Assembly (NCBI GenBank): GCA_963741795.1
Contig: CAVUJM010000007.1
Location: 19,092-83,091, forward strand
Direction: 5' to 3'
From: an uncultured Chloroflexia bacterium
GTDB lineage: Bacteria > Chloroflexota > Chloroflexia > Thermomicrobiales > UBA6265
Length of the DNA: 64,000 nucleotides
Shown here: in pieces, positions 9-62,557 of the stretch
Layout of the letters: every line of letters begins with the position of its first letter
How positions within the stretch are numbered: the stretch's first letter is position 1
The notes under the pieces: model-generated
What the model was told of the DNA's origin: nothing
Databases searched by the model: none
The model's input: only the letters and a program-made list of their open reading frames with translations
Made by a program: the position numbers and the translations under genes

Positions 9-101
9 GTAGTCCTGGCCCCATGGTGGCCAGGGAGGGTCAGCAGACCCGTGCCTGATCGGGCGCCGTTCCTCTCGCCGACCACTGCGGGCCGGCGCTA
101 C
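9..101. repeat. REPIN-like element: inverted pair of GTAG-tagged palindromes with two inner hairpins
   Basis: Left GTAG-TCCTGGCC-ccatggt-GGCCAGGG; right arm on minus strand GTAG-CGCCGGCC-cgcagt-GGTCGGCG; inner GGGTC-agca-GACCC. Confidence 0.65.
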
Positions 102-126
102 CAAGGTGCTTTGGCGTGCTGGCGGC

Positions 127-1381
127 CTACGGAACGGGCCGCAACAACTCCAGCATCGCGGGCGGGTTGGTGGCAAGGACCGTCCAACTGCCTGGCTGGC
201 CACCGAGGAAACGCACAAGATCATCCAGCGCGCGGGAGATCGAGCCGGCCAGCGACGCGCTCACGCGGACACCGGGCTCAAGGTGAAGCGCTTTCACCGT
301 CAGCACGCCCGTTTTCCGGTTGAACGACGGATCGAGCCGCCCCACGATCTTGCCGCGATGCAGGATCGGCAGCGAGTAGTACCCGTACATCCGCTTCGGC
401 GCGGGCACGTAACACTCCAGCCGGTAGTCGAAGTTCCACAACTGCTCGCCACGGGTCCGGTTCCAGGTCAGGTTGTCGAACGGCGAGAGGAACGTGGTCA
501 GGGTCGGCCACCCCTTGCGCTCGCGCAACCCCTCCAGACGCTCCTGAAGCGAGGCATCCATCCAGACAGGCTCATCGATCCCCTCGACCTCGACCTCAAG
601 CAGTCGCCCTTCGCCGGCAAAGTCCCGCAAAATCCGCCGCGCCTCGGTCGCTGGCACATGCGGACGGCCACCGGTGCGGAAGTAGTCGGTCGCCCATTTC
701 GCGGTCGTGACGCCGAGCGGACGGATCGCGTGGTCGAGGATCAGGCGCCATGCCTCCTCCTGCGGCAACGGAGGGCCGTTCCACAACTCCGGGACAACGC
801 GTTCGGCGAGGTCGAAATGCCGCGCGAAGCCACTGTCCCGCTTGTGAATCATCAGTTCACCGTGGATCCAGAGATAGGTCATCAGGCGGCGTTCGGGCTT
901 ATTCCCCCACCAGTGCCAGGCCGGAAGGCGCTCGGCATCCGGAGGCGACTCGAACTGCCGCGAGGTCATCGGGCCCTCGATGCGCGATACGCTGGAGGAT
1001 CGCGTCGGCGATGGCCCGCTCGTCCGGGTCCGACAGCGGCCCTTTCCCTTCCGACCGGGCGCGCTCCATGTAGGGCCGAAACATGGGGAGCAGCTCGGAC
1101 GGCAGGATGGACGCGGCGTGCACGATATACTCAGTCAGCGCATGGCCGTCCTCATAGAGGCCCGTCACCAGCGCGGGATCGTAGGGCCCAAGTCGGCTCC
1201 AGAGCACGGTCTCGTGCGAGCGCGAAATCACCGAGATGGTATCGAGCTGGATCGTGCCGAGATGCCGGAAGGTATCGAGGATATCCTCCCGTGTCGCGCG
1301 GCGCCGCGAGGGGCGACGGTCCAACCGACTGGCGATCACCGCCAGGGCTTGTGCTTCGGCTTTCGTCAGTCTCACGATCAT
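127..1381 (-). CDS. YcaQ-like winged-helix (HTH_42) crosslink-repair DNA glycosylase; +1 frameshift near 982
   Basis: ORFs 899-1444 and 127-969 join: IQLDTISVISRSH (QxD motif), LSPFDNL, FDYRLECYVPAPKRMYGYYSLP; ATG 1381 with AGGGA RBS; span is 3n+1. Confidence 0.85.
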
Positions 1382-1497
1382 CCTGTCCCTTGGCCTGGGG
1401 CCGGTCCTGTCCAACTCCTGCATCCTACTATCCATTCCGGACATTGTCTGACCGGGTATGCTTGCCGCAGCGTTGACCGTTGTCGTCGGAGACCTAG

Positions 1498-2607
1498 ATG
1501 CGCGTTGCTCTCGTTCACGATTACCTCACACAATATGGTGGCGCAGAGCGCGTGCTGGAAGTCCTTCACTCGATGTACCCGGAGGCCCCGGTCTACACCT
1601 CGTTGTTCGACCCCAGGGGCCTGCCACCCGGGTTCGACCGCTGGGAGATCCACACCAGCGCCCTCTCCCGCGTGCCCGGCGCCGTGCGCGACCATCGCCT
1701 CTGGACCCTGCTCTACCCGGGCATCTTCCGGCGCATCGGCAAGGACCTGGGCGGCACATTCGACGTCGTGATCGCCGACTCCAGCGCGTGGGCGCACCTG
1801 GCCCAGCCGGATGACGGTACGCCGATGATCTGCTACTGCCACTCGCCCGCGCGGTTCCTCTACAACGACGACGACTACCTCGCCGCCGTTCGATACCCGG
1901 CGCCAGTGAAGAAGGCGACGGACGCCGTGTTCCGCGCCTTGCGCGCCAACGACCAGCGCGCCGGTCGCAAGGTCACCCGCTTCGTCGCGAACTCCGAAGA
2001 AGTCCGACGCCGCATCCAACGCACGTGGGGGCAGGACGCCACGGTGATCCACCCGCCCGTCGATGTCGACCGGTTCCGCCCACAGGCGCCCGTCCCGGCG
2101 GAGGACTGGTACCTGGTGGTGTCACGCCTCGTGCCGCACAAGTGGATCGATCTGGCGGTGCGCGCCAGCACGGCGGCGAACGTGCCCCTGAAGGTCATCG
2201 GGGCCGGGCGCGCCGAGCATAGCCTGCGGGAGATGGCCGGCCCGACCGTCGAGTTCCTCGGGGAGCTGGACGACGACGCGGTGGTGTCGTACATGCAGCG
2301 CTGCAAGGCGCTCATCCTGCCCGGCGTCGAGGACTTCGGGATGACGGCCGTCGAGGCGCAGGCCGCGGGTCGTCCGGTGATCGCCGCCGGAGCCGGTGGC
2401 GCGCTGGAGACGGTGATCGACGGCGTCACCGGCCAACACTTCACACCGCACAGCGAGGCTGAGCTCGCCGAGATCCTGCGCGACGGGGACGGGCAGGCAT
2501 GGGATACGGCGGCGATCCAGGAGAACGCGGCACGCTTCCGCCGCGCCGTCTTCGAGGAGAAGATGGCCGCTCTGGTTGAAGAGATCGTCGCCAGCCGACC
2601 CTCGTAG
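1498..2607 (+). CDS. Glycosyltransferase family 4
   Basis: MRVALVHDYLTQYGGAERV N-terminus; EDFGMTAVEAQAAGRPVI GT-B motif. Confidence 0.93.
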   Translation: MRVALVHDYLTQYGGAERVLEVLHSMYPEAPVYTSLFDPRGLPPGFDRWEIHTSALSRVPGAVRDHRLWTLLYPGIFRRIGKDLGGTFDVVIADSSAWAHLAQPDDGTPMICYCHSPARFLYNDDDYLAAVRYPAPVKKATDAVFRALRANDQRAGRKVTRFVANSEEVRRRIQRTWGQDATVIHPPVDVDRFRPQAPVPAEDWYLVVSRLVPHKWIDLAVRASTAANVPLKVIGAGRAEHSLREMAGPTVEFLGELDDDAVVSYMQRCKALILPGVEDFGMTAVEAQAAGRPVIAAGAGGALETVIDGVTGQHFTPHSEAELAEILRDGDGQAWDTAAIQENAARFRRAVFEEKMAALVEEIVASRPS

Positions 2608-2700
2608 TCTCGCACCATATGTGCGAGACATCGGCCGCAGGCCGATACGGGCGCGATATGACCCTTCGGGTCATGTCCCGGACACATGGTCCGGGACTAC
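2604..2700. repeat. Four-hairpin REPIN-like element (GTAG...CTAC)
   Basis: GTAG-TCTCGCAC-catat-GTGCGAGA, ATCGGCC-gca-GGCCGAT, ATGACCC-ttc-GGGTCAT, GTCCCGGAC-acatg-GTCCGGGAC-TAC; same layout at 20493 and 49628. Confidence 0.85.
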
Positions 2701-2712
2701 GAAATCTACACC

Positions 2713-3486
2713 CTAGAAGTAATTCACCGTGATGCCGCCGTCGACGACGAACTGGGACCCGGTCATCCACGACGATTCATCCGACGCGAGGAAGATGCCG
2801 GCGTTGACGATGTCCTCGGCGCGGCCAAAGCGCCCGAGCGGGATGCGGTTGAGGCGCTTGTTCTTCTCCTCCTCGCTTGCGAAGAGGGTCTCCATCAATG
2901 GCGTCAGGATCGGTCCCGGGCAGAGCGCGTTCGCGCGGACGCCGTGCCGGCCATACTGGACCGCCAGCGACCGCGTCAGCGACAGGACGCCGCCCTTGCT
3001 CGCCGTATAGGCGTCCTGCGGCACGGTGCAGCCCATCAGCGCGACGAACGAGGCGATGTTGATCACCGAGCCGCCACCGGCCTCGATCAGCTTCGGGATG
3101 CCATGCTTGCAGACGAGGAAGATGCTCTTGAGGTTGACGTCGATCACGCGGTCGAACGTCTCCTCGCTCGTCTCGATCACCGAGGTATCCTCGTCCGGCA
3201 TGATCCCGGCATTGTTGTAGAGCACGTTCAGCGATCCGAAGCGCTCGACGCTCTCGTCGATGATCCGGCGGACATCGGCGTCGACCGCGACGTCGCCGGT
3301 GACCGCATGGACGCACCCGGCGTCGCCCACTTCCCCCATCGCTTCCCCGATGGCATCGTGCAGCGCGCCTTCGTTGATGTCCGCCGCGATCACCTTCGCG
3401 CCCTGCTCGACGAACATTCGGGTCGCCACGCGCCCCATACCGCTCGCCGCCCCCGTGACCAGGATGACCTTCCCCGCCAATCGCAT
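2713..3486 (-). CDS. Short-chain dehydrogenase/reductase (SDR)
   Basis: TGAASGMG, NNAG, YTASK motifs; ATG 3486 with AAGGAG RBS. Confidence 0.92.
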   Translation of the reverse strand: MRLAGKVILVTGAASGMGRVATRMFVEQGAKVIAADINEGALHDAIGEAMGEVGDAGCVHAVTGDVAVDADVRRIIDESVERFGSLNVLYNNAGIMPDEDTSVIETSEETFDRVIDVNLKSIFLVCKHGIPKLIEAGGGSVINIASFVALMGCTVPQDAYTASKGGVLSLTRSLAVQYGRHGVRANALCPGPILTPLMETLFASEEEKNKRLNRIPLGRFGRAEDIVNAGIFLASDESSWMTGSQFVVDGGITVNYF

Positions 3487-3644
3487 GCGTTGCTCCTTTG
3501 TGCTGGTATCTCGGTTGGATGTTCCACGCATCCTAGCATCGCTGGCCGTTGACAGGAACAACCCCGCCACGGACAATCCGGAGCATCGAATCGGGACCAC
3601 CTATCCGCGCCGTACCTGCCGCATCGCCGGCGAGGGGGAACACC

Positions 3645-5018
3645 GTGCACGCTGGCAAGATCACGATCGAGGAACTGACGTCGGCCATCCGCTCCGGGGA
3701 GATCGATACCGTCATCACCGCCGTCCCGGACATGCAGGGGCGGCTCGTCGGCAAGCGCGTGACGGGGACGCACTTCCTCGACCACTGCCTGGAGCACGGC
3801 ACCCATTTCTGCACCTACCTGCTCGCGACCGACATGGAGATGGAGACGCCGGACGGCTTCCCCGGCCATGACTGGACGACCGGCTACGGCGACTACCTCG
3901 CCAGGCCGGATTGGGGAACGCTGCGCGTCATCCCGTGGCTGGAGCGGACCGCGACTGGTGCTCTGCGATGCCGTCGAGCAGGAATCCGGGGAGACGGTCG
4001 ATGTCGCGCCACGCACGATCCTCCAGCGCCAGGTCGAGCGCGCGGAGGCGATGGGGTTCACCCCCAAGATGGCGACCGAGCTGGAGTTCTACCTGCTTCG
4101 GGAATCGTTCGAGGAGGCCCACGAGAAGGGGTACGCGAACCTGACGCCCTTCGGCTGGTACAACGAGGACTACCACCTCTTCCAGGCGACCAAGGCCGAG
4201 CCGATCTATCGACGTTTCCGCAACGAGATGACGGCGGCCGGCATCCCGGTCGAGTTCTCGAAGGGCGAAGCGGCGGCCGGGCAACATGAGGTGAACATCC
4301 ACTACGATACGGCGCTGGAGGCGGCCGACCGGGCAGTGCTGTTCAAGCACGGCGCGCGGGAGATCGCCTGGCAGGACGGACGCGCCCTGACCTTCATGTC
4401 GAAGCCGCACCAGACGTGGACGGGCTCCAGCGGGCATATCCACATCAGCTTGTGGGACGCTGAGGGCATAGGAGCGGTGTTCCCGCAGGACGAAACGGCC
4501 GGGAGATGAGCGACACGATGCGCTGGTTCCTCGGCGGGATGATCGCCGGCGCGCAGGAGCTTGCGCTGTTCATGGCGAGTACCGTCAACGCCTACAAGCG
4601 CTTCGCGGCGGCGTCGTGGGCGCCGACGAACATCGTCTGGGGACGCGATAACCGCACCTGCGGGTTCCGCGTGGTCGGCTCTGGCCCGGCGTTACGGATC
4701 GAGAACCGGCTCCCGGGCGCGGACAGCAACCCCTATCTCGCCTTCGCGGCTGTCCTCGCGGCCGGGCTGGCAGGCATCGAGCGGAAGATCGAGCCGCCGG
4801 AGGAGTTCCGCGGGAACGGGTACCTGGCGACTGATGCGCCGAAGATCCCGAGCGCGCTGTACAAGGCGATCGCGAACTGGGAGCGCAGCGAGCTGGCGCG
4901 GGAGGTCTTCGGCGAGCGGGTGCATGCGCATTACCTCAACCTCGCCCGCGTCGAGCAGGAGACGTACGACCGCGTGGTGACGGATTGGGAGCGCGTGCGG
5001 TACCTGGAACGAGGATAG
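3645..5018 (+). CDS. Glutamine synthetase family protein (GlnA4-like gamma-glutamyl-amine ligase); frameshifts near 3954 and 4503
   Basis: Three ORF pieces give PDMQGRLVGKR, ELEFYL, GQHEVN, TFMSKP, GSSGHIH, WGRDNRT, IENRLPGADSNPY; GTG 3645 after GAGGGGG. Confidence 0.85.
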
Positions 5019-5032
5019 AACGTTCCTGCCCG

Positions 5033-5057
5033 CGCCACACACAAGGTGCGGCGGTAC
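5033..5057 (-). repeat. Single GTAC-tagged REP-like palindrome
   Basis: Minus strand GTAC-CGCCGCAC-cttgt-GTGTGGCG, matching copies at 37991 and 40348. Confidence 0.7.
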
Positions 5058-5072
5058 GAGAACGTTTGATTC

Positions 5073-5149
5073 GTAGAGCCGGCCCTCGCAGCTGCGGGCG
5101 GTGGCCGGCTTGAGGACAGACGTGAGCCGGCCACAAGGGCCGGCTGTAC
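5073..5149. repeat. REPIN-like element with a GTAG left arm and a GTAC right arm
   Basis: GTAG-AGCCGGCC-(inner hairpin)-gt-GGCCGGCT and AGCCGGCC-acaag-GGCCGGCT-GTAC. Confidence 0.75.
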
Positions 5150-5194
5150 GCGCGAGGGTTTTGCATCCACTTTGCGAGGCCGCAAGGCAGACTG

Positions 5195-5954
5195 CTACCA
5201 GCGCTTACCGGTGAGCTGGCGGAGGCGCATGCGCCAGACCATGAGGGCGGCCTCGATGACGACGCTGCGGGAGAGCTTGGAGGCGCCGGCAACGCGGTCG
5301 TGGAACGTGATCGGGGATTGCCGCCACGTCTTGCCGAGGCGCAAGGCGCGGTAGGTCGTCTCGATCTGGAAACCGTAGCCATCAGAGCGGACGGTATCGA
5401 GGTCGATCGCCTCCAGCGTCTCGCGACGCCAAAGCTTGAAGCCACCGGTGAGATCGCGGATCGGCACGCCGAGGATCAGGCCGGCGTACATACCACCCGC
5501 CCGGCTGATCGCCTTGCGCGGCCACGGCCACCCCACCGTCTCGCCGCCTGGGATATAGCGACTGCCGAGAACGAGGTCGGCGCCGGTCGTGCGCGCGACA
5601 TCGATCATCTTCTGCAGGTCGGCGGCACTGTGCGAGAGGTCGGCGTCCATCTGCGCGATATGCGTGGTGCCCGAGCTCCAGCGCGCGGCGGAAGCCGGCG
5701 ACGTAGGCGCGCCCCAGTCCCTCCTTGCCCTTCCGGTGGAGAACGTGGACTCGCCCGGGATGCTCCCGCGCCATGGCATCGGCCATCTCGCCGGTGCCAT
5801 CCGGGGAGCTGTCATCGACGATGAGCACCTGTGGCGCAGGATCCAGCGCCAGCACAGCGTTCACCTGCTGCTCGATGTTCTCGCGTTCGTTGTACGTGGG
5901 AATGACGACCACGAGGGTCATCGGCTGATCGCTCGCGGAGACCGCCTGGGTCAT
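5195..5954 (-). CDS. Polyprenol monophosphomannose synthase (GT2, Ppm1/DPM1-like); +1 frameshift near 5669
   Basis: VIPTYNERENI, VDDSSPDGT, GKEGLGRAY, then QMDADLSH, DLTGGFK, GYGFQIE in the second frame. Confidence 0.88.
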
Positions 5955-6337
5955 GCCTCGTCGCCGTCTCCGCGCCCGCGCGAGAGCAGGAAGTTCACCT
6001 GCACGAGCAGGGCGTCGACGTCGAACGGCTTGGAGAGCAGCGCGTCGGCCTGCAGCTCGCCGGTGCGGTCACGCAAGGTCCGGCTGGCGGACATGGCGAT
6101 GATCGGCAGGTCCTTCGTCTCCGGCTCGCGCCGCAGGCGGGCGATGAGGGTGCCGCCATCGACGCCAGGCAGCATGATGTCCATCAGGATCAGGTCGGGG
6201 TCCCAGTCGCGGGACATCATCAGGCCCTGGGCGCCGTCTCGCGCGATGGCCACGGTGTAGCCCTCGCCCTTCAGCACCACGTCGATGAGCTGGGCGACGT
6301 CTTCCTGATCTTCGACCACCAGAATTCGTGAGGACAC
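5951..6337 (-). CDS. Single-domain response regulator (CheY-like receiver)
   Basis: ILVVEDQ, DLILMDIMLPGVDG, KPFD; stop overlaps downstream ATG (ATGA). Confidence 0.9.
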   Translation of the reverse strand: MSSRILVVEDQEDVAQLIDVVLKGEGYTVAIARDGAQGLMMSRDWDPDLILMDIMLPGVDGGTLIARLRREPETKDLPIIAMSASRTLRDRTGELQADALLSKPFDVDALLVQVNFLLSRGRGDGDEA

Positions 6338-6516
6338 GTGCTCTATCCCTCGTGACTCGCTGCACGGCGCCCGGCCGACGCCGGTTCTTCCCTTATCGTA
6401 CTGTACGAACGCGATCTTCGCGAGGAAGCCGGACGCTGCGGCCCATGAACGAGTGGACCTATGTCTCGCAGATATCGACCTTCGGCCGATGCATCGCACA
6501 TGCCAGTGCGACGCTA

Positions 6517-7851
6517 TTACGCCTTGCCGGTGTCTTCGAGATCGGCGCCGAGCTCCGTAAGCTTACGAACGAAGTCGGCGTAGCCGCGGTCGATGTGGAA
6601 GACGTCGGTGACCTCTGTCTCCCCCTCCGCGACGAGACCGGCGAGCACAACGCTGACGGCGGAACGAATATCGAGCGACTGGACGCGCGCGCCGTGAAGT
6701 TTCACGGGCCCGTGGACCTCGGCGGAGGTGGCGAGGAACTCGCCATTGTCGCCCCAGCGCTGGACGCGAATATCGGCGCCCATTTTGATCAGCTCGTCGG
6801 TATAGCGCAGGCGGTCCTCGTAGACGCGCTCGTGCACGTGCGCGATGCCCTCGGCCTGCGTCAGGAGCGGCATGAAGGTCGATTGGGAGTCGGTCGGGAA
6901 GCCGGGATACGGCAGCGTCTGGATATCGACGGCCTTCAGCGTCTTGCCGGGACGGACGAGCATCTCGCGGTCACGCATCCAGACGTCGGCGCCCGCCTCC
7001 TTCAGCTTCTCCGTGATCGGCACCATGTGATTCTCGATCACCTGGTCGATCGTCACCTCGCCGCCGGTGATGACGCCGGCGATCGCGTAGGTCGCGGCCT
7101 CCAGGCGATCCGGCAAGACGATCTCCGAGACGCCGGTCAGGCGCTCGACGCCGTGGACGGTGATGAACGGGGTACCGAGGCCGGAGATTCGCGCGCCCAT
7201 CCGGTTCAGCATCTCGCCGAGCCAGACGATCTCGGGCTCCGCGGAGGCGTTCATGATGACCGTCGTGCCGGCGGCCTTGGTGGCGGCCATCATCAGGGCC
7301 TCGGTACCGGTGTGGCTCGGATAGTCCATGTAGATGCGCGCGCCCTGCAGGGCACTGACGCGGGCGTGGATCATGTGCTCGTCGCGCTCGATCTCCGTGC
7401 CCATACGCTCGAAGCCGCGCAGGTGCATGTCGATCGGCCGCTTGCCGATCTGGTCGCCACCGGGGAGCGCGAACGAGATTTCGCCCATGCGCGCCAGCAT
7501 CGGACCCGTGACGACAACGGAAGCCCGCGTGGCGCGGAAGAGGCCATGGGGCGCATTCGTTCGGGTGATGTGCTCGGCGCGAATACGCACGCGCTCATGC
7601 TCGCGCTCGATCTCCACCTCGGCGCCAAAGGCCCGCAGCAACTCCGCCATGGAGAGGACGTCGTCGATCATCGGGACGTTGTTGAGGACAACTTCTTCCG
7701 GCGTCAGGAGCGACGCGGCCAGGGCCTTCAGGGCGGCATTCTTCGCGCCGCTAATGCGGACCCGGCCGCTCAGGGTATGGCCACCCCGAATCTTGAGCAG
7801 TCGCTCGGCGACAGGGGCCTGGGCGGTGGTGGAGTGCGCCGTTCCGGACAT
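6517..7851 (-). CDS. murA: UDP-N-acetylglucosamine 1-carboxyvinyltransferase
   Basis: SGAKNAAL, LPGGDQIGKRPIDMH, PDRLEA, PYPGFPTD, HIDRGY. Confidence 0.95.
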   Translation of the reverse strand: MSGTAHSTTAQAPVAERLLKIRGGHTLSGRVRISGAKNAALKALAASLLTPEEVVLNNVPMIDDVLSMAELLRAFGAEVEIEREHERVRIRAEHITRTNAPHGLFRATRASVVVTGPMLARMGEISFALPGGDQIGKRPIDMHLRGFERMGTEIERDEHMIHARVSALQGARIYMDYPSHTGTEALMMAATKAAGTTVIMNASAEPEIVWLGEMLNRMGARISGLGTPFITVHGVERLTGVSEIVLPDRLEAATYAIAGVITGGEVTIDQVIENHMVPITEKLKEAGADVWMRDREMLVRPGKTLKAVDIQTLPYPGFPTDSQSTFMPLLTQAEGIAHVHERVYEDRLRYTDELIKMGADIRVQRWGDNGEFLATSAEVHGPVKLHGARVQSLDIRSAVSVVLAGLVAEGETEVTDVFHIDRGYADFVRKLTELGADLEDTGKA

Positions 7852-8061: not shown

Positions 8062-8099
8062 ACAGAACCGGCGATGTCGTGTGACATCGCCGGTTCTGT
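8062..8099 (-). terminator. Strong hairpin downstream of atpC
   Basis: Perfect 17-bp stem ACAGAACCGGCGATGTC/GACATCGCCGGTTCTGT; weak U-tract. Confidence 0.65.
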
Positions 8100-20492: not shown

Positions 20493-20588
20493 GTAGTCCC
20501 GGGCCGTGCCCGGGACGGCACCGAAGGTGCCGCGTTGGCGCCCATATCGCCCTTCGGGCGATGTCTCGCCCACCGAGGGCGAGACGAC
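20493..20588. repeat. Four-hairpin REPIN-like element (GTAG...CGAC)
   Basis: GTAG-TCCCGGGC-cgt-GCCCGGGA, GGCACC-gaa-GGTGCC, ATCGCCC-ttc-GGGCGAT, GTCTCGCCC-accga-GGGCGAGAC. Confidence 0.8.
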
Positions 20589-20649
20589 ATGGCGGTCAAC
20601 CACCCTGCAGATGGCTATAGGCCACGTCGAACAGTACAGGTGCACAACT

Positions 20650-20724
20650 GTAGACCCGAGCGACCTCGCTGTCCGGGTCTTGCGTTATGTCGCCGACCTC
20701 CGGGCTCGAGCGTCCAGGGTCTAC
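20650..20724. repeat. Second REPIN-like element (GTAGACCC...GGGTCTAC)
   Basis: Terminal inverted repeat GTAGACCC/GGGTCTAC; each half forms an imperfect hairpin. Confidence 0.6.
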
Positions 20725-37990: not shown

Positions 37991-38045
37991 GTACCGCCGC
38001 AGCTGGTCTGCGGCGATCAACGCCGGACACAAGGTCCGGCGGTAC
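37991..38045. repeat. GTAC-tagged REPIN-like element between mnmA and dnaA
   Basis: GTAC-CGCCGCAG-ctggt-CTGCGGCG-atcaa-CGCCGGAC-acaag-GTCCGGCG-GTAC. Confidence 0.85.
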
Positions 38046-39676: not shown

Positions 39677-39741
39677 GGGAGGACATTTCGACCGGCGGCC
39701 CGCAGGAGATGTCGCTCCGGAGGTCGAAAGTCCTCTGCTAC
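39677..39741 (-). repeat. Single GTAG-tagged REP-like hairpin with extended upper arm (may also terminate dnaA)
   Basis: Minus strand GTAG-CAGAGGAC-TTTCGACC-(28 nt)-GGTCGAAA-t-GTCCTC. Confidence 0.6.
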
Positions 39742-40347: not shown

Positions 40348-40407
40348 GTACCGCCGCAGCTTGTCTGTGGCGTGGAAACAATCGCCGCAGACAAGCTGCG
40401 GCGGTAC
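40348..40407. repeat. GTAC-tagged REPIN-like element
   Basis: GTAC-CGCCGCAG-cttgt-CTGTGGCG-(10 nt)-CGCCGCAG-acaag-CTGCGGCG-GTAC. Confidence 0.85.
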
Positions 40408-43675: not shown

Positions 43676-43696
43676 CGCCGGAGACGAGCTCCGGCG
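43676..43696 (-). repeat. REP-like palindrome with degenerate tag
   Basis: Minus strand (ACAC)-CGCCGGAG-ctcgt-CTCCGGCG; same stem/loop layout as the GTAC family. Confidence 0.55.
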
Positions 43697-43716
43697 GTGT
43701 GGAGCAGTACACCATG

Positions 43717-43753
43717 CAGCGACGCCCCGACCATGATGGTCGGGGCGTCGCTG
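43717..43753 (+). terminator. Strong hairpin downstream of the DUF1684 gene
   Basis: Perfect 17-bp stem CAGCGACGCCCCGACCA/TGGTCGGGGCGTCGCTG. Confidence 0.65.
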
Positions 43754-43774: not shown

Positions 43775-44122
43775 ACGTCATGTTGAGCGCAGCGAAACAT
43801 CCTACGCGAAGCGGGTTGCCGAGGGATGCGCCTGGCCAGAAGCCCCATACAGCCATGACACGCGCTCGCCAGGACATATCCTGCTCTCCGCCCCCCTCGC
43901 CGTCATCCCGACCAAGCGGACCGCGCAGCGGGTCGCGCGTGGAGGGATCTTTGCACGAGCTTGATGATGATTCTTGCCGGAGCAAAGATCCCTCGACACG
44001 GTCGTCTCACTCCGCTCGACAGACCGGCTCGGGATGACGAGCCGAGGGTTTACGGGACATGCAAGGACCGTGCACCGGTAGCCCGCTTCGCGTTGGATGT
44101 TTCGCTGCGCTCAACATGACGT
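43775..44122. mobile_element. Non-autonomous CGTC-tagged inverted-repeat element (47-bp arms) containing a nested second element
   Basis: Arms 43775-43821 and 44076-44122 match at 44/47 positions (ACGTCATGTTGAGCGCAGCGAAACATCC...); no credible ORF inside. Confidence 0.75.
43901..44039. repeat. Inner CGTC-tagged REPIN-like element
   Basis: Both halves read CGTCATCCCGA...GAGGGATCTTTGC on their own strand. Confidence 0.75.
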
Positions 44123-49627: not shown

Positions 49628-49741
49628 GTAGTCTCGCCCCCTGTGGGCGAGACATCGGCCGCAGGCCGATAGACGCGCGGTAATTCCCGGCTGCACATCT
49701 GCCGCTTCGCGGCAGGTCTCGGGCACAGGGCCCGAGACTAC
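49628..49741. repeat. Four-hairpin REPIN-like element (GTAG...CTAC)
   Basis: GTAG-TCTCGCCC-cctgt-GGGCGAGA, ATCGGCC-gca-GGCCGAT, CTGCCGC-ttc-GCGGCAG, GTCTCGGGC-acagg-GCCCGAGAC-TAC. Confidence 0.85.
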
Positions 49742-54986: not shown

Positions 54987-54997
54987 CTCGTACTCGT

Positions 54998-55035
54998 GCC
55001 GGGAGCGGTCAGCTGGCCGCTCCCGGCTTTCTCTT
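54998..55035 (+). terminator. Hairpin and T-rich tail after the binding-protein gene
   Basis: GCCGGGAGCGGTC-agct-GGCCGCTCCCGGC-TTTCTCTT. Confidence 0.7.
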
Positions 55036-55100
55036 CCTTAACCGGGCTATCGGGATTCATGCACCGAACGGATATGCCCGGACGTGAGGGATGCGAACTC

Positions 55101-56051
55101 ATGGCAACCACCAACGCGGTCAGCACCGCCTCACCCTCGCCACTGGTGAAACGACGACGCTTCTCCATGACCAAAGAGGAGAGAAAGAGGCTCTTCCTGG
55201 GGCTCATCTTTATCTCGCCCTGGATCATCGGCTTCCTCGCGTTCTTGCTCTACCCCATCTACTACACGGTCCACCTCAGCTTCACGCAGTACGGCGGCTT
55301 CGGGGACCCGGTGTGGATCGGGCTTGACAATTATCGACGTATGTTCGACGACAACGTCTTCCGCACATCGCTGTGGAACACCCTCTACTACACAGCGTTC
55401 GCGGTCCCGATCGGCGTCGTGGTGGCGATGGCGCTCGCGCTCGCGATGAACCAACCGGTACGAGAAATCCCGATCTACCGCACGATCCTGTTCCTGCCAT
55501 CGGTGCTCCCGTTGTTCGCGGTGTCGTTTATCTTCATGATCCTGCTTGATCCCCGCCAGGGCATCATCAACGAGTTCCTGCGCCGCCTCGGCGCGAGTCC
55601 GCCAAGCTGGTTCAGCGACCCCGACTACGCGAAGCTCGGCATCGTGATGATCGCGCAGATGGGCGCCGGTCAGGTCGCCCTGATCTTCCTTGCCGGGTTA
55701 AGGGGCATCCCGACACATTTGTATGAGTCGGCCATGCTCGATGGCGCGGGTTGGTGGAACCGCTTCCGCAAGATCACCATTCCGCTGATGACGCCGATCA
55801 TCCTCTATGACCTGATCCTCGGCATCAGCCTCGGGCTGCAGGTCTTTACCCAGTCCTACATCATTACCCAGGGTGGACCGGCAAACTCCACCAACTTCAT
55901 GGTGTTCTACATGTACAACAATGCCTTCCGGTACGGCGGCCAGATGGGGTATGCCTCGGCAATCGGCGTCGTAATCTTCATCCTCACGTTCATCATTGCC
56001 GGACTCGTCTTCTGGACATCCAACAAATGGGTGAACTACGACCTCAACTAG
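55101..56051 (+). CDS. Carbohydrate ABC transporter permease
   Basis: WIGLDNY, EAA-like loop LYESAMLDGA, MGYASA. Confidence 0.93.
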   Translation: MATTNAVSTASPSPLVKRRRFSMTKEERKRLFLGLIFISPWIIGFLAFLLYPIYYTVHLSFTQYGGFGDPVWIGLDNYRRMFDDNVFRTSLWNTLYYTAFAVPIGVVVAMALALAMNQPVREIPIYRTILFLPSVLPLFAVSFIFMILLDPRQGIINEFLRRLGASPPSWFSDPDYAKLGIVMIAQMGAGQVALIFLAGLRGIPTHLYESAMLDGAGWWNRFRKITIPLMTPIILYDLILGISLGLQVFTQSYIITQGGPANSTNFMVFYMYNNAFRYGGQMGYASAIGVVIFILTFIIAGLVFWTSNKWVNYDLN

Positions 56052-56080
56052 CACGGGCACCGAGCGGGAAGGAGTGACTC

Positions 56081-57004
56081 ATGGCGGTAACCACGTCGGC
56101 CCCAGAAAACGAAATCATTGAGGCCCACGGCGAGCACCTGTATCAGCCGAGGCGAGCGAAGAAGGACAAGTACGTCCGTATCTTCAGCCAACGATTCTTA
56201 CCCAGGATCTTCCTCATCCTGATGTGCACGTTGTTCATGCTTCCCTTCTACTGGATGGTCGCGACGGCGCTGAAGGGGAATCTGGAGCTCGCGGCGTACC
56301 CGCCCACCCTGATTCCTCATTCACCGGACTGGAACAACTTCGTGCGCGCCACGGAAGCTTTCCCGTTCTGGCGATACGCCTGGAACACAACGTTCATCAC
56401 CGGTCTGTCGATCCTGGGCGCGGTCATCTCCAACACGATCGTGGCGTATGGGTTCTCCCGTATCGATTGGCCCGGGCGCGACAAGGTGTTCTTCTTCGTG
56501 CTGGCGACGGTGTTCGTGCCCGCCCCGGTCCTCTATATCGCCCTGTTTGACATCTTTGCCCAGTTCAACATGATCGACACCTACTGGCCACTGATTCTCC
56601 CGCTCTGGTTCGGAAACGCGTTCTGGATCTTTCTTATGCGTCAGTTCTTCCTTCAAATCCCGAAGGATCTTTCGGATGCCGCGCGACTCGACGGCGCAAA
56701 CGAGTTCCAGATATTTGGCCAGGTCATCCTGCCAATCGCCCGGTCGGCGGTCGGCGTGGTGGCGATCTTCGCGGCCGTCGGCGCATGGAACGACTTCATG
56801 GGCCCGCTGATCTACCTGCAGAGCGGGACGAAGTACACGCTCTCGATCGGCCTGACGTTCTTCCAGCAGGCAAACGCGCGGGACATCCAGTACAACCTCC
56901 TGATGGCCGCATCGGCGCTGATCGTGCTGCCCGTCATCGCCCTCTTCCTCTCGTTCCAGCGCGCGTTCACGGAGGGGATCTCGGTCGCCGGCCTGAAGGG
57001 GTAG
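56081..57004 (+). CDS. Carbohydrate ABC transporter permease
   Basis: LMRQFF, LSDAARLDGA, WNDFMGPL. Confidence 0.93.
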   Translation: MAVTTSAPENEIIEAHGEHLYQPRRAKKDKYVRIFSQRFLPRIFLILMCTLFMLPFYWMVATALKGNLELAAYPPTLIPHSPDWNNFVRATEAFPFWRYAWNTTFITGLSILGAVISNTIVAYGFSRIDWPGRDKVFFFVLATVFVPAPVLYIALFDIFAQFNMIDTYWPLILPLWFGNAFWIFLMRQFFLQIPKDLSDAARLDGANEFQIFGQVILPIARSAVGVVAIFAAVGAWNDFMGPLIYLQSGTKYTLSIGLTFFQQANARDIQYNLLMAASALIVLPVIALFLSFQRAFTEGISVAGLKG

Positions 57005-57053
57005 GCTTCCTTCACAACGGATTCGATTGGGGGTACATTCGCCCCCGAAGCAG

Positions 57054-57084
57054 GGAGATGGCCGGTGCGAGACCGGCCATCTCC
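57054..57084 (+). terminator. Intergenic hairpin before the mannosidase gene
   Basis: GGAGATGGCCGGT-gcgag-ACCGGCCATCTCC. Confidence 0.55.
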
Positions 57085-57146
57085 ACGACGACGCACCGTT
57101 GCGTCAGACAGTCCGGCCGCGTGAAGGCTGGCGAGAGGAATTGGGT

Positions 57147-60100
57147 GTGGAAGACTTCCGCAAATTTGACGAACGACGACTCGAGCGCCAGGCCCGCTGG
57201 CTGCCGGAGCTCCGCGCCTGGCGCAACGCCATGGTCGCGCCGATCGACGCCTGGACGTTCACCGCGCCCGACGGCACGACCACCGGGCTGCACCGCGGCG
57301 ACGCCTGGCCGATCGTGGAGCATCACCGGCCAGCGCGGTTCTCCGCCGAGGTCACGGTGCCCCAGGCGTGGGCCGGGTTGCCGGTCGAGCTCCAGCTTTG
57401 GCTTGGTGGCGAAGGCTTCTTCACCGTCACCCCGGGCAAGCAGTACGGCCTGAACCCGTTCCACCAGGATTTCCGCCTGGCGGACAGCGCCGAGGGCGGC
57501 GAAACCTACCAGATCGACGCCGAGGTGATGCCGAAGGGCATGTTCGGGACCCACGTTGATCACCCCTCCATCGGGCGCGCCTTCATCGCCGTGCCGCACG
57601 ACGCGGTGCGCGAGCTGGAGATCGACCTTCACCTGCTGATCGCGACCGCGAAGGTCCTCAAGGACCACGAGATCATGCCGCACCTGCTCGATCTCGTTGA
57701 CGACGCCTACGCCGTCATCGCGCCGTTTTGGCCGACGAGCACCGAGACGGCAAAGACTCGCCTGATCTCCGGCGATACGCTCGGAGGCAACAGCTACGCC
57801 ACCGGCCAGGGCGACTACGGTCAGCCTGGATACAAGGGGCACCTCGTGCTCCCGCGCGTGCTGTGGCACCACGACGGTCCCACGGGCGAGCTCCAGATGC
57901 TGTCGCAGGAGGCGCTCGACGCCTGCGGCACGGCCCGCGAGATGATCGCCGAGCGGCTGGACGCGCTGCGCGAGAAGTACCCGCCGCAGGGCAACATCCT
58001 GCTCTCCGGCCACGCGCATATCGACCTCGCCTGGCTGTGGCCGGTCGCCGAGACGCGCCGCAAGGCCCGCCGTACGTGGTCGAACCAGCTCCGGCTGATG
58101 GAGAAGTACGACGACTTCGTGTTCAACCAGTCGTCGGCGCAGGCCTATGCGTGGATCGAGAAGGACGACCCGGAGCTGTTCGCGGCGATCCAGCAGGCCG
58201 TGAAGGATGGCCGCTGGGAGCCCGTCGGCGGCAGCTGGGTCGAGCCGGACAGCCAGGTCAGCGGCGGCGAGGCCTATGTCCGCCAGCTTTTCTACGGCCA
58301 GCGCTATTTCGAGCACGCCTTCGGCATCCGCAACGCGACCGCCTGGCTGCCGGACGTCTTCGGCTTCTCCGCCGCGGTACCGCAGATCCTGCTCGGTGCC
58401 GGCATCGAAAACTTCTTCACGATCAAGGTGACCTGGAGCGAGGCGAACGTCTTCCCCTACGACCTGTTCATGTGGGAGGGCATCGACGGCAGCAAGGTGC
58501 TGACACACACGTTCAACAACCCGGACGGCGGCTACAACGGCCTGATCGAGCCGAACGCCACCTTCACGACGTGGAAGAACTTCGTCGGCAAGCGCTGGCA
58601 CGACCAGACCTTGCTCTCCTTCGGCTGGGGCGACGGTGGCGGCGGCCCGAGCGAGGACATGCTCGAGAAGTACGACCGCCTGAAGGACTACCCGGTGCTG
58701 CCGCGGCTGGAGATGGGCAAGGTCGAGGACTTCTTCGCCAGCCTGCCGGTCGAGGGCATCCCGACGTACGTCGGCGAGCTCTACCTGGAGCTGCACCGCG
58801 CGACGCTGACCACCCAGGCCGCGACAAAGTACCTCATGCGCCAGGGCGAGCACCGGCTCGCGGAGGCCGAGGCCTTCGCCGCGCTCGGCACGCTGGACGG
58901 CCGCGACTTCCCGTTCGAGACGCTCGACGCGAAGTGGCAGGACCTGCTCTACAACCAGTTCCACGACGTCCTGCCGGGCTCCTCCATCAAGGAGGTGTAC
59001 AAGGACACCGTGCCGCAGCTCACCGAGGTCACCGAGACGGCGATGAGCGTGCGCGACGAGGCGATTGTCACCCGCGCCGGCAGCGGCGAGGGGGCCTACG
59101 CGATCGCCAACCCATCGCTGGAGGCCCGCCCGTTGACGGCGACCCTGCCGGGCAACGCCTCGATCACCGGGGTCCACCAGCAGGCGGTCGAGGACGGCAT
59201 CCTGATCCACAACCCGGCCGAGATCCTCGGCGGGTTCGAGACGCGCGTCCTCTCGAACGCCGGTGAGGGTTCGCACTCCGAAGCGGCATCCGAGGCTGTC
59301 AGCGCGACGGCGGCCGGTAACGGCTACACGCTCGAGAACAGCGTTGTCCGCGTCGAGATCGGCGAGGACGGCACCCTGCACAGCGTGTTCGACAAGCGCG
59401 CTGGTCGCGAGACGCTGAAGGAGCGCGGCAACCAGCTCTGGGCCTACGTTGACCGCCCGCGTGCCTGGGATGCGTGGGACATCGACGAGACCTACGAGGA
59501 GATCGGCGAGGAGATCACCGCCGTCGACAGCATCGAGCTTGTCGAGGACGGTCCGCTGCGTGTCGCCGTCCGCGTGACCCGCTCGTGGCGCAATTCGACG
59601 TTCGTGCAGACCTACCGCCTCATGTCGCAGTCAAGCCGGGTCGATATCAAGACCCAGATCGACTGGCACGAGCGCATGATGCTGGTCCGCGCGGTGTTCC
59701 CGACCACGATCCGCACGCACGAGGCCGTCTTCGAGACGATGTTCGGCGTGCACAAGCGCGTGACGCACCGCAACACGACCTGGGAGCGCGCCCGCTTCGA
59801 GGTCAGCGCGCATCGCTTCGTCGATCTCTCCGAGCCAACCTACGGCGTGGCCCTGATGAACAACGGCAAGTACGGGCACAGCGCCGTCGATGGTGTGCTC
59901 GGCATGAGCCTGGTGCGCGGGTCGCTCTACCCGGACCCGACCGCCGACGAGGGCGCGCACGAGTTCACCTACGCGTTCTTCCCGCACACCGGTGACTGGG
60001 TCGACGCGGGTGTGACGTATGAAGCGAAGGCGCTGAACGCGCCGCTGATCGCCGTGCCGGTGGCCGAGGATGCGACGGCGTCCGCGCCGTTCGTCGAAAA

Positions 60101-60350
60101 CGAAGGCGTCCGGCTCGGATTCGGGGCGCTGAAGAAGGCGCACGACCGCGACGGCCTGACGTTGCGCGTCTATGAGCCGCACGGCATCCGCGGCGAGGCG
60201 TCGCTGGTCTTCGATCGGCCGGTGAAGGCGGCGAACCGCACGAACCTGCTGGAAGAGGACGCCGAAGGCGCCGACATTCGCGTCGAGGGCGAGCGCGTCA
60301 CCTTCGAGGTGCGGCCGTTCGAGATCGTGACGATGGTCCTGGAGTTCTAG
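57147..60350 (+). CDS. Alpha-mannosidase (GH38)
   Basis: GHAHIDLAWLW, WLPDVFG, GWGDGGGGP, GELYLELHR, NQFHDVLPGSSI. Confidence 0.95.
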   Translation: MEDFRKFDERRLERQARWLPELRAWRNAMVAPIDAWTFTAPDGTTTGLHRGDAWPIVEHHRPARFSAEVTVPQAWAGLPVELQLWLGGEGFFTVTPGKQYGLNPFHQDFRLADSAEGGETYQIDAEVMPKGMFGTHVDHPSIGRAFIAVPHDAVRELEIDLHLLIATAKVLKDHEIMPHLLDLVDDAYAVIAPFWPTSTETAKTRLISGDTLGGNSYATGQGDYGQPGYKGHLVLPRVLWHHDGPTGELQMLSQEALDACGTAREMIAERLDALREKYPPQGNILLSGHAHIDLAWLWPVAETRRKARRTWSNQLRLMEKYDDFVFNQSSAQAYAWIEKDDPELFAAIQQAVKDGRWEPVGGSWVEPDSQVSGGEAYVRQLFYGQRYFEHAFGIRNATAWLPDVFGFSAAVPQILLGAGIENFFTIKVTWSEANVFPYDLFMWEGIDGSKVLTHTFNNPDGGYNGLIEPNATFTTWKNFVGKRWHDQTLLSFGWGDGGGGPSEDMLEKYDRLKDYPVLPRLEMGKVEDFFASLPVEGIPTYVGELYLELHRATLTTQAATKYLMRQGEHRLAEAEAFAALGTLDGRDFPFETLDAKWQDLLYNQFHDVLPGSSIKEVYKDTVPQLTEVTETAMSVRDEAIVTRAGSGEGAYAIANPSLEARPLTATLPGNASITGVHQQAVEDGILIHNPAEILGGFETRVLSNAGEGSHSEAASEAVSATAAGNGYTLENSVVRVEIGEDGTLHSVFDKRAGRETLKERGNQLWAYVDRPRAWDAWDIDETYEEIGEEITAVDSIELVEDGPLRVAVRVTRSWRNSTFVQTYRLMSQSSRVDIKTQIDWHERMMLVRAVFPTTIRTHEAVFETMFGVHKRVTHRNTTWERARFEVSAHRFVDLSEPTYGVALMNNGKYGHSAVDGVLGMSLVRGSLYPDPTADEGAHEFTYAFFPHTGDWVDAGVTYEAKALNAPLIAVPVAEDATASAPFVENEGVRLGFGALKKAHDRDGLTLRVYEPHGIRGEASLVFDRPVKAANRTNLLEEDAEGADIRVEGERVTFEVRPFEIVTMVLEF

Positions 60351-60378
60351 GTTCCAGCGACAATCGCGAGGTGACCGA

Positions 60379-60401
60379 GGGGAGCGGCAGTACCGCTCCC
60401 C
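60379..60401 (+). terminator. Hairpin downstream of the mannosidase gene
   Basis: GGGGAGCGG-cagta-CCGCTCCCC. Confidence 0.55.
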
Positions 60402-60427
60402 GTCCCGTCGGTTTCGCATGTGTCGCC

Positions 60428-60452
60428 GTACCGCCCGCCCTCGTGGCTGGCG
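60428..60452 (+). repeat. Single GTAC-tagged REP-like palindrome
   Basis: GTAC-CGCCCGCC-ctcgt-GGCTGGCG. Confidence 0.6.
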
Positions 60453-60572
60453 TCGCGGTCAATAGCTCCTTCACAGGAGGCGGGATCACACGGTCGTTCC
60501 GAGCAGCGCCTTATCGGGCGGTGGTACCATCCAGGACAGACTGACCGTACGCCCTCACGCCCGGGACACCCA

Positions 60573-62306
60573 ATGCCGCTCTCCCGTATCCCACGCCCGC
60601 GACCAACCTGGATCGAGCCCGAGCCGATCCCGGACGATGTCGGCCTGCTCGCGCTTCATCCGCACCGGCTGGTCGCCTCCCTCCTCTATCGGCGTGGCAT
60701 CCGCACTCCGGAGGATGCGGCGGCCTTCCTCACGCGTCGCGAGCCGGATGCGCTGGAGCCGGACCTCCTGCCGAACATGCGCGAGGCGCTGACCCGCACG
60801 ACGACGGCGATCAACAACGGCGAAATGATTGGCATCTTCGGCGACTACGATGCCGACGGCGTGACCTCGACGACGCTACTGACGCGCGCCCTGCGCTCCG
60901 CTGCCGGCGAGGACAAGGTCGTGCCGTTCGTGCCGGACCGCGTGGATGGGTACGGCGTGAGCGAGCGCGGCGTGCGCATGCTCGCCCAAACCGGTTGCGC
61001 GCTGATGATCGCCGTCGACTGCGGGAGCAACGACGTCGAAGCGGTCGCCCTGGCGCGTGGCTTGGGCATGGACGTCATCATCCTCGATCACCACGCGCTC
61101 AACGGCGACGGGCCGGAAGGGGCGATCCTCGTCTCCGCGCAGCTCCGCCCGGACGGCATCTACCGCGAGCTGACCGGCGTCGGCATCGCCTGGCTCTTCG
61201 TGCTCGGGCTGATGGAGCGCGGCTACGACATCACCCGGCTGGAGAACGGCGACGCGGGCAGGCTGCTCGACCTGGTCGCGCTCGGCACCGTCGCGGACGT
61301 CGGGGCACTGAAGGGGGCGAACCGGGCGCTCGTCGGTCATGGCCTCCACCGGCTGCGGGCGGCGGAGCGGCCGGGCGTCCGCGCGATGCTCCGGCACGGA
61401 CAGATGGAGCCGGCGGCGATCACGGCGGATCGCATCTCGTTCGGGCTCGCGCCGCGCCTCAACGCGGCCGGACGCGTCGCCTCGGCATCCGCGGCGCTGG
61501 AGTTGCTTCTCACGGATGACCGCGACCTCGCCGACCGCCTCGCCATGCAGCTCGAGCAGTGGAACCAGCAGCGCCGGGAGCGGACGGACCACATCCTCGC
61601 GGAGATCGCGGCGACGATCCTCGCCACGCCAGGCTGGGCGGAGAAGCCCTTCCTCGCGCTCCATGGACCGGACTGGGACAAGGGACTCGTCGGCCCGATC
61701 GCGGCGAAGATCACCGAGCGCCTCGGCGTGCCGGCGGTCATCATGCAGGAGCAGGACGGCGTCCTCTCCGGCTCCGGCCGCTCGGTGCCGGGCGTGAACC
61801 TGCTCGAAGCGCTGCGCGCCGCCGACGGGCTGATGACGCGCTACGGCGGTCACTCCGGCGCGGCGGGGCTGACCCTCCCGCGCGAGCATCTCGACGCTTT
61901 TACGGCGGCGGTCACCGATGCCGTCCGCGCGCAGGGCGTACCCCTCCCGCAGCCCCCGGCACTCCAGCTCCATGCCTGGCTGCCCGAGGTGGCGCAGCAG
62001 GTCAGCATCGTCGAGGCGCTGGAGCACCTCGAGCCATTCGGGCAGGACAACCCGCTGCCGATGTTCGGCGTGCAGGGAGCGCGGATCCTCGACATCCGCA
62101 CGATGGGCCGAGAGAAGCAGCACCTGAAGATCAGTGTCGGCGGACGGCGGCGCGGCCTGGACGCGATCCTCTGGGGCGGTGCGGCCCGCGCGGCCGAGCT
62201 TCGCGGCGCGGCCAATGTGGACCTGGCCGGGACGCTGAGCGTGAACACCTGGAACGGTGTCAAGCGCCTCCAGATGATCCTCGCCGACTTCCGCCGCGCG
62301 TCCTGA
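60573..62306 (+). CDS. recJ: Single-stranded-DNA-specific exonuclease RecJ
   Basis: GDYDADG, VDCG, LDHH, LGTVADV, PRLNAAGR, GSGRS, GGHSGAAG. Confidence 0.95.
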   Translation: MPLSRIPRPRPTWIEPEPIPDDVGLLALHPHRLVASLLYRRGIRTPEDAAAFLTRREPDALEPDLLPNMREALTRTTTAINNGEMIGIFGDYDADGVTSTTLLTRALRSAAGEDKVVPFVPDRVDGYGVSERGVRMLAQTGCALMIAVDCGSNDVEAVALARGLGMDVIILDHHALNGDGPEGAILVSAQLRPDGIYRELTGVGIAWLFVLGLMERGYDITRLENGDAGRLLDLVALGTVADVGALKGANRALVGHGLHRLRAAERPGVRAMLRHGQMEPAAITADRISFGLAPRLNAAGRVASASAALELLLTDDRDLADRLAMQLEQWNQQRRERTDHILAEIAATILATPGWAEKPFLALHGPDWDKGLVGPIAAKITERLGVPAVIMQEQDGVLSGSGRSVPGVNLLEALRAADGLMTRYGGHSGAAGLTLPREHLDAFTAAVTDAVRAQGVPLPQPPALQLHAWLPEVAQQVSIVEALEHLEPFGQDNPLPMFGVQGARILDIRTMGREKQHLKISVGGRRRGLDAILWGGAARAAELRGAANVDLAGTLSVNTWNGVKRLQMILADFRRAS

Positions 62307-62517
62307 GCCATCGTCTCCTCGGATTGCTATGGTCTGAATCTGGCGTCATTCCCATCGGGATGGCCTGCCTGTGCTCGCTCGGCGCACCCGAATCAATGCG
62401 CGGGTATGGCGGACGTGTCTATCGCGACATCTTTGTCTCAGGAACACGACGTCACGTCTTGCAGAGACACAGACTCCTCGACCAGCTGACCGCGATGAAC
62501 GTGTCAAGAGAACCATC

Positions 62518-62557
62518 GTACCGCCGCACATCGCGGCCGCGACCGGGTGCGGCGGTA
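62518..62557. repeat. GTAC-family REP-like hairpin with extended loop
   Basis: GTAC-CGCCGCAC-(17 nt)-GTGCGGCG-GTA. Confidence 0.65.

Follow-up and report, generated by a model that had tools for sequence, protein, structure and literature searches.

The 64-kb stretch of DNA analysed here (the window; G000:C7:19092-83091) carries short tagged hairpins that we identify, with a probability of about 0.85, as repetitive extragenic palindromes (REPs), mostly paired as REP doublets (REPINs), that belong to several co-diversified pairs of REP family and REP-associated tyrosine transposase (RAYT), or REPtrons, in a genus that is probably Chloroflexota. The genome (G000) comprises 3.08 Mb in 44 contigs, with 66% G+C and 88% completeness. 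We favor several enzyme/REP pairs over a single enzyme that reads hairpin shape because the RAYT loci are flanked by REPs of their own class and because RAYTs of sister species match those classes that lack a RAYT here. The population is ordinary in kind and in principle already described, phylum included, and what is notable is its diversity and the presence of natural classes tagged GTAC. An initial annotation of the window, which had listed 13 such loci, merged GTAC with GTAG, and the difference between the two tags is the most interesting point to emerge.

Perfect hairpins made of a GTAG or GTAC tag, an 8-bp stem and a loop of 3-8 nucleotides occurred 9 times in the window compared to a mean of 0.075 and a maximum of 1 in 200 dinucleotide shuffles, and 214 times in the genome compared to 3, 3, 2, 4 and 4 in five shuffles. 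When the 4-mers 5' of all 3138 perfect 8-bp hairpins on both genome strands were counted, GTAG (138) and GTAC (76) ranked highest, followed by AACG (60). Pairing was also scored at sites chosen without regard to it: out of 1086 GTAS-N8-CNNGT sites, 140 had 8/8 pairs and 30 had 7/8, while the number at 8/8 was 0-1 when the 3' arm was slid by 1-3 bases and 0-6 for 13 other tags. The distribution of pair counts was bimodal and unmatched by any control tag. Similarly, a perfect 3' half followed tag plus 5' half-stem at 168 of 220 sites drawn from 19 classes. These results confirm that the hairpin excess, tag enrichment and non-random pairing are real, and bear out the view of the initial annotation that the stems differ in sequence yet retain their fold. 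Chance palindromes might be expected in a GC-rich genome (66% G+C), and matches at 7/8 pairs without the loop plan are indeed common, mostly in genes, but 214 hairpins against 2-4 in shuffles and bimodal pair counts that no control tag equalled refute chance as the explanation.

Arms were then collected in a catalogue of perfect arms, 7/8 arms with the loop plan and long-loop arms. It holds 278 arms compared to 5, 7 and 10 in three shuffles, 178 of them tagged GTAG and 100 GTAC, spread over 36 of the 44 contigs. With 94 tag-plus-stem types, 176 distinct sequences among the 278 arms and no exact arm in more than 10 copies, identity-based repeat finders would split up the population, close to the initial annotation's expectation that they would miss much of it. 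A relaxed rule of 7/8 pairs without the loop condition was dropped, as it admitted many chance matches in genes and placed only 86 of 200 outside them. A covariance model was built from 44 arms (43 distinct) selected for perfect pairing; its alignment has both-side changes at all 8 pairs, which is informative only for the variety of pair types. Run unfiltered on the window, the model matched 20 times at E<=1, including 15 times at E<0.05, and on the genome it gave at least 149 matches (149 of 150 scored, among 2510 candidates). Rfam at gathering threshold had no match in the window.

The common plan of an arm is a (C)GTA[G/C] tag, an 8-bp stem that often fits NNNCGNNC (205 of 278), a closing C-G pair and an unpaired 3' T. 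Loops of the 214 perfect short-loop arms read C..GT in 170 and T..AT in 16, with 197 ending in T, and seven-base loops take the form CC...GGT. As far as conservation goes, this fits a closing C-G (or swapped T-A) pair with an unpaired T on its 3' side, the geometry that the initial annotation had drawn from a handful of loops. The hairpin of the class flanking the intact RAYT gene on contig C9 reads CGTAC-AGCCGGCC-CTTGT-GGCCGGCT, and other stem classes of the genus include TCTCG, in which the G of GTAG is able to pair with the base following the stem, CGCCGCAC, GGGTCGAC and GGGAGGAC. The base at -1 is C in 86 of 87 scored GTAC arms, and GTAG arms have no such base.

Arm pairs are tag-outward in 61 cases, tag-inward in 8 and tandem in 9, with spans that cluster at 54-68 nt and at 92-114 nt. 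Both arms have identical stems in only 19 of the 61 tag-outward pairs. The longer form folds into four successive hairpins and the short form into two separate ones (z -5.8 to -7.9); the dimer at window positions 9-104 lacks a significant fold (z -1.6). Immediately after 69 of 178 GTAG arms, compared to only 1 of 100 GTAC arms, comes a second hairpin that is perfect, has a loop of 3 nt and typically reads ATCGACC-GNA-GGTCGAT. The stems of these second hairpins (for example ATCGACC-GCA/GAA-GGTCGAT) also vary yet stay paired (CGGCACC, ATGACCC, CTGCCGC). GNA loops closed by a C-G pair form very stable DNA mini-hairpins.

A Pfam Y1_Tnp scan of the genome found one RAYT, and tblastn with its protein found three loci, two of them broken. 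None is in the window; they are found on contigs C9 and C11 and are flanked by arms, in keeping with the initial annotation's assignment of the hairpins to a REP/REPIN system tied to HUH/Y1 RAYT genes located elsewhere:

C9:184780-185292, intact RAYT of 171 amino acids, flanked by inverted GTAC AGCCGGCC CTTGT arms.
C9:46307-46827, frameshifted RAYT in two frames, between two GTAG TCTCGCCC/TCTCGGGC four-hairpin composites.
C11:33123-33581, frameshifted RAYT in at least three frames, flanked on both sides by arms of the GTAG GGGCGATG class in the same strand, one perfect and the other with 7/8 pairs.

At 26-60% protein identity to each other, the three are not copies. Against Pfam Y1_Tnp (cut-off 23) the intact protein reaches 26.1 bits. 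Among solved structures, E. coli TnpA-REP (4ER8) was the best match (E 9e-6) to a profile built from 34 paralogues, and in these paralogues His82 is nearly invariant and His84 and Tyr155 are invariant, corresponding to the HUH motif and the catalytic Tyr. The features of an IS200/IS605 insertion sequence are lacking, since the loci are not near-identical and the IS200 score is 18.5 bits for a cut-off of 55. The two broken genes (L002 at about 840-870; L003 at 495-957) contain frameshifts and no stops, and in an assembly of metagenome type such frameshifts may be sequencing errors.

Sister species supplied RAYTs for further classes. Each of the 13 congeners has 0-8 RAYT matches. Of the 37 full-length RAYT loci examined in sister species, 25 have tagged hairpins of 7/8 pairs or better next to the gene in the scan. 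At one locus (L157) a GTAG-like hairpin sits one base off register and was tallied as GTAG-flanked; the scan found no tagged hairpin at 11 further sister-species RAYTs. Several of the flanking hairpins belong to classes that are without a RAYT here, namely GTAC CGCCGCAC in G013, GTAG GGGTCGAC and CATCGGAC in G006, CGCCGACC in G012, and GGGAGGAG and CCCCGCAC in G002. The RAYT paralogues for these other classes have either been lost from this genome or are missing from its assembly.

The pattern GTASNNNCGNNCCNNGTGNNCGNNN has 133 matches here and 0-216 in the 13 congeners, whereas its count does not exceed 4 in 11 further genera of the family (reversed-pattern control 0-5). A genome from another family of the same order (G034) has 66 matches, nearly all GTAG GGGCGAAC CTTGT in regularly spaced inverted pairs, a homogeneous REPIN population compared to the diffuse one in G000. 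Among public RAYT loci, those closest to the RAYT here belong to records titled uncultured Chloroflexia (91% identity) and Thermomicrobiales (52%), each with GTAC flanks of classes found here; as metagenome-assembled genome records of these groups they fit, short of proof, the initial annotation's guess that the DNA is from Chloroflexota. More distant RAYT homologues, from many phyla, have their own GTAG hairpins at the flanks. In twelve homologues from other phyla (L011, L027, L029, L032, L033, L036-L040, L046, L048) a GTAG hairpin or pair lies inside the protein-matched region, about 200-300 nt in, and in nine of these (L032, L033, L036-L040, L046, L048) the match exceeds 500 nt and is longer than the 513-nt query. 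A REP may have inserted inside the RAYT gene in those homologues.

The GTAC arms, which include those around the only intact RAYT of the genome, depart at the fourth base from the tag given as GT[AG]G (PMC6006769). Published tag variants comprise GYAG, GYRG, GTRG, GTMG and GTGG, with the fourth base unchanged in all (PMC3733652). We found no report of natural GTAC-tagged REPs in the literature located, where GTAC appears only as a mutant substrate (PMC8266576), though supplements and figures of these papers may list more. The enzymes differ as well. The residue aligned to Q95 of E. coli TnpA-REP in the 4ER8 alignment is the one following the invariant Trp134, and it is Gln in 20 of 20 GTAG-flanked RAYTs of the genus, whereas in the eight GTAC-flanked RAYTs it is Leu, Leu, Leu, His, His, Met, His and Gln. 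There are exceptions elsewhere: a further RAYT of the genus with His at this position, L156, has no identified REP, and GTAG-flanked homologues from other phyla have Gln in 12 cases and His in one (L010). The GTAC-flanked enzymes occupy three distinct positions in a maximum-likelihood tree, which reduces the effective sample to about three events, and each of the three positions has at least one enzyme without the Gln. The combination of GTAC-tagged arms and Q95 replacement looks new.

In E. coli, it is A3 and G4 of the tag that remain available for pairing with the C|T cleavage site, and Q95 together with R21 wedges between G4 and the stem (PMC3479197), while an engineered GTAC substrate shifted cleavage by the Marinomonas RAYT from CT/CA to GT/GA (PMC8266576). 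Based on this guide model and on the shift in Marinomonas, we tentatively suggest, at less than even odds, that the guide of these RAYTs has changed in nature, the fourth tag base having gone from G to C three times, and that the enzymes concerned should cut G|T or G|A and not C|T. Such a change in recognition may also involve the invariant C that precedes GTAC.

We next turn to the loci of the window, where coordinates are window positions and G006 is the sister genome used for orthology. All 13 coordinates given by the initial annotation carry the sequences it described, including all eight stems and six loops, with stem CAGAGGAC found only in the doubtful hairpin at 39677. As REP loci, ten of the 13 are supported: nine match the covariance model at E<0.01 (2604, 5033, 5073, 20493, 37991, 40348, 43676, 49628 and 60428), and locus 9, whose 7-nt loop misfits the 5-nt-loop model, is in the catalogue at 7/8 pairs. 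The loci at 20650 and 62518 are weak, and 39677 was not hit by the model. The model and catalogue added partner arms at 76-101, 2676-2700, 5125-5149, 20561-20591, 38021-38045, 40383-40407 and 49717-49741.

9..101, tag-outward dimer from the catalogue; left arm 9-35 (+) GTAG TCCTGGCC CCATGGT, 7/8 pairs; right arm 76-101 (-) GTAG CGCCGGCC CGCAGT, 7/8 pairs; both arms are at the orthologous G006 site, where the right arm pairs perfectly.
2604..2700, four-hairpin composite REPIN; GTAG TCTCGCAC CATAT, two inner 3-nt-loop hairpins, inverted GTAG TCCCGGAC CATGT; covariance model 38.2 and 45.2 bits; four-hairpin fold, z -7.9; the equivalent G006 gap has GTAC-class REPs instead.
5033..5057 (-), single arm; GTAC CGCCGCAC CTTGT, 7/8 pairs; covariance model 31.4 bits, E 5e-6; absent in G006.
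5073..5149, tag-outward dimer, with stem class AGCCGGCC as at the intact RAYT; left arm 5073-5110 GTAG with an 18-nt loop (CTCGCAGCTGCGGGCGGT); right arm 5125-5149 (-) GTAC AGCCGGCC CTTGT; covariance model and catalogue; G006 has an orthologue of the right arm and none of the left.
20493..20591, four-hairpin composite; left GTAG TCCCGGGC with a 3-nt loop, right of the TCTCGCCC class with its tag decayed to GTCG; covariance model E 0.0042 and 0.018; fold of four hairpins and an additional short one of 3 bp, z -6.9; the G006 gap is without the element.
20650..20681 (+), weak, possibly decayed GTAG ACCCG... arm; covariance model only, 14.2 bits, E 0.2; region unalignable with G006.
37991..38045, 55-nt REPIN; GTAC CGCCGCAG CTGGT, 5-nt spacer, inverted GTAC CGCCGGAC CTTGT; perfect-hairpin scan and covariance model; two separate hairpins in the fold, z -7.0; sequence at the G006 site unrelated.
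39677..39741 (-), long hairpin with a GTAG-like end; no covariance-model match and doubtful as a REP; kept in G006, with the tag lost there.
40348..40407, 60-nt REPIN; both arms GTAC CGCCGCAG CTTGT, the left with 7/8 pairs; covariance model and catalogue; the orthologous G006 copy has diverged beyond its flanks.
43676..43698 (-), single arm CGCCGGAG CTCGT with decayed tag (CACC); covariance model 25.6 bits, E 1.8e-4, model positions 6-31; GTAC intact in G006.
49628..49741, 114-nt four-hairpin composite; GTAG TCTCGCCC CCTGT and inverted GTAG TCTCGGGC CCTGT, the class pair that flanks the frameshifted C9 RAYT; perfect-hairpin scan and covariance model; fold z -6.5; absent from the G006 gap.
60428..60452 (+), decayed arm whose partner is lost; GTAC CGCCCGCC CTCGT, 7/8 pairs; covariance model E 0.0011; G006 has a tag-outward pair with a perfect left arm and an atypical right-arm loop (ACAAC).
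62518..62557 (+), weak member with a 17-nt loop; GTAC CGCCGCAC stem; covariance model 12.2 bits, E 0.66; region unalignable with G006.

One convergent gap of the window also holds palindromes of another kind. A palindromic repeat of about 140 nt at 43899-44040, without a GTAG or GTAC tag, recurs at about 27 places of the genome at lengths of at least 90 nt and is also present in G006 and G013; it is about 98% identical to G006 compared to 90% for the whole region. The same gap has a perfect 18-nt palindrome (43717-43753) and a 62-nt inverted-repeat pair (43775-43836 and 44061-44122, 84% complementary) that surrounds the 140-nt repeat to form a nested palindromic composite.

The genome of G006 is syntenic with the window, and aligned blocks holding loci are 86-92% identical. 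Five of the 13 listed loci are shared (9, the doubtful 39677, 40348, 43676 and 60428), the dimer at 5073-5149 is shared in its right arm only, and the other seven are absent, different or unalignable (2604-2700, 5033-5110, 20493-20591, the weak 20650, 37991-38045, 49628-49741 and 62518), so that gain, loss and decay of elements are all seen between species. At two further loci (G000:C20:92934-92997 and C9:90998-91061) the gap holds different classes in G013, and the G006 copy differs from that of G000 identically in both arms, with loop CTCGT/CTGGT at one locus and stem ACCCGGCC/AGCCGGCC at the other; this comparison of further REPINs left out three unaligned loci on C22. The two cases hint that compensatory change arises via copying between arms and not by paired point mutations.

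Arms lie mostly between genes, as the initial annotation stated, with 223 of 278 outside crude gene calls based on codon usage (2536 genes; 79% coding, 21% outside genes). Gaps contain 153 of 194 REP loci, and these divide into 60 in convergent, 82 in tandem and 11 in divergent gaps, compared to shares of total gap length of 19%, 58% and 24%. For tandem gaps, the median distances are 24.5 nt from the end of the upstream gene and 95 nt to the start of the next. A role as host-selected elements at gene 3' ends, such as mRNA stabilisers, terminator-like structures or protein sites, with RAYTs being incidental or historical, would account for this strong convergent and tandem bias close to the upstream gene end; some loci are also kept between species at about 10% divergence, and such host roles have been reported for REPs (PMC3733652). 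We nevertheless judge it very improbable as the full explanation. A T-run at +1 to +4 after the stem, the mark of an intrinsic terminator, was found in neither tag class. Function at RNA 3' ends leaves the unpaired 5' tag and the tag-outward dimers unexplained, the same elements flank RAYT genes, and conserved copies decay, as the divergence of 40348 in G006 and the arm lost at 60428 show. Host roles are in any case compatible with REPs of several RAYT/REP pairs. As identities for the hairpins, terminators and CRISPR-like arrays were ruled out by the missing T-run and by the counts of pair arrangements.

The initial annotation had proposed that one enzyme in trans maintains all classes by reading their common shape of tag, 8-bp stem, closing pair and bulged T. 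The assembly does contain a single intact RAYT, yet classes without a cognate enzyme pair as well as the others; the C..GT or T..AT loop plan is common to all classes (186 of 214), and in E. coli the hairpin tip and the five nearest base pairs are without protein contacts (PMC3479197). We still regard a single enzyme as improbable. One particular class flanks each of the three RAYT loci here and most in sister species, in agreement with the known rule of one REP family per tnpA-REP (PMC6006769). Those classes that have no RAYT here correspond to paralogues of congeners, and E. coli binding was abolished by a stem randomised with its structure kept (PMC3479197). In addition, the assembly is only 88% complete.

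Several observations weigh against the assignment to co-diversified RAYT/REP pairs or to parts of it. The intact RAYT is distant from curated RAYTs, scoring 56.1 bits on NCBIfam REP_Tyr_transpos, below the cut-off of 80, although this is still its top family, far above IS200, and a single-sequence search of solved structures with it gave no match. The frameshifts may be assembly errors, which together with the incompleteness of the genome makes the RAYT count uncertain, and the fraction of perfect hairpins is similar in classes with and without a resident RAYT, showing no dependence on the resident enzyme. Spacers within 64-nt REPINs vary among copies, unlike the prediction of simple whole-REPIN copying. 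DNA fold prediction keeps the 5-nt loop open, and the gene calls behind the intergenic placement are approximate. The comparison of orthologous gaps that the initial annotation had suggested did separate shared from non-shared loci, but it gave no clean empty site in sister genomes, the gaps being too diverged or holding other REP classes, and thus no insertion ends or target. Nor is any CT, GT or GA dinucleotide conspicuous at a fixed position beside the arms.

By analogy with the systems of E. coli, Stenotrophomonas and Marinomonas, DNA in single-stranded form would be bound by a RAYT monomer at the hairpin foot and the splayed 5' tag, and the HUH/Tyr site of the enzyme would cut and rejoin nearby DNA, so that copies spread or are removed. 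Each stem class would be served by one RAYT paralogue. G000 retains one intact RAYT, of the GTAC AGCCGGCC class, and two frameshifted ones, and its other classes match paralogues that survive in sister species.

In most respects the population resembles known ones, and the initial annotation's view of it as unusual did not hold. The text of PMC3733652 describes for the GTAG REP super-family an unpaired 5' tetranucleotide, stems of 6-13 bp and short loops, complementary-stem sub-families, several classes per genome, head-to-head (tag-outward) dimers more often than any other arrangement, positions downstream of genes in gaps that are convergent or unidirectional, and class-specific RAYT flanks, all as seen here. 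Its list already includes a Chloroflexi genome, T. roseum, with family GTAG-23, and is the only literature on REP/RAYT in Chloroflexota that we found, with the same reservation about supplements and figures. Unlike in the tag variants reported there, the fourth tag base is changed here (100 of 278 arms GTAC, with C at -1 in 86 of 87). As described for P. fluorescens (PMC3116915) and Stenotrophomonas (PMC3686654), REPs form inverted doublets with one RAYT per class and many classes per lineage (more than 20 in one species complex in PMC3686654), orthologous RAYTs have differing REP flanks, and copy numbers differ strongly among relatives (here 0-216 in 13 congeners). In contrast to those systems, the population is diffuse, with mostly non-identical stems within dimers, variable spacers and a four-hairpin form of 92-114 nt. 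The perfect 8-bp palindromes are as in the Stenotrophomonas group-3 REP (PMC8266576). Shared with E. coli TnpA-REP (4ER8, PMC3479197) are the HUH and Tyr core, the W-Q...R segment that holds the tag, the tag at the foot and a stem irregularity, here the unpaired T; unlike it, the enzymes have low similarity (profile E 9e-6) and Leu, His or Met in place of the Q95-aligned Gln in GTAC-flanked members.

These findings provide a well-populated REP/RAYT example outside Proteobacteria and show that searches by pattern or covariance capture populations which repeat finders relying on sequence identity would fragment. With 0-8 RAYTs and 0-216 pattern matches per genome, the genus is convenient for asking if REP populations decay after RAYT loss. 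For the guide model of cleavage-site choice by HUH/Y1 enzymes, so far probed only by mutated substrates, the GTAC classes provide a test from nature, and if the proposed change of guide is true, the enzymes concerned would form a natural series showing co-evolution of enzyme, tag and cleavage site.

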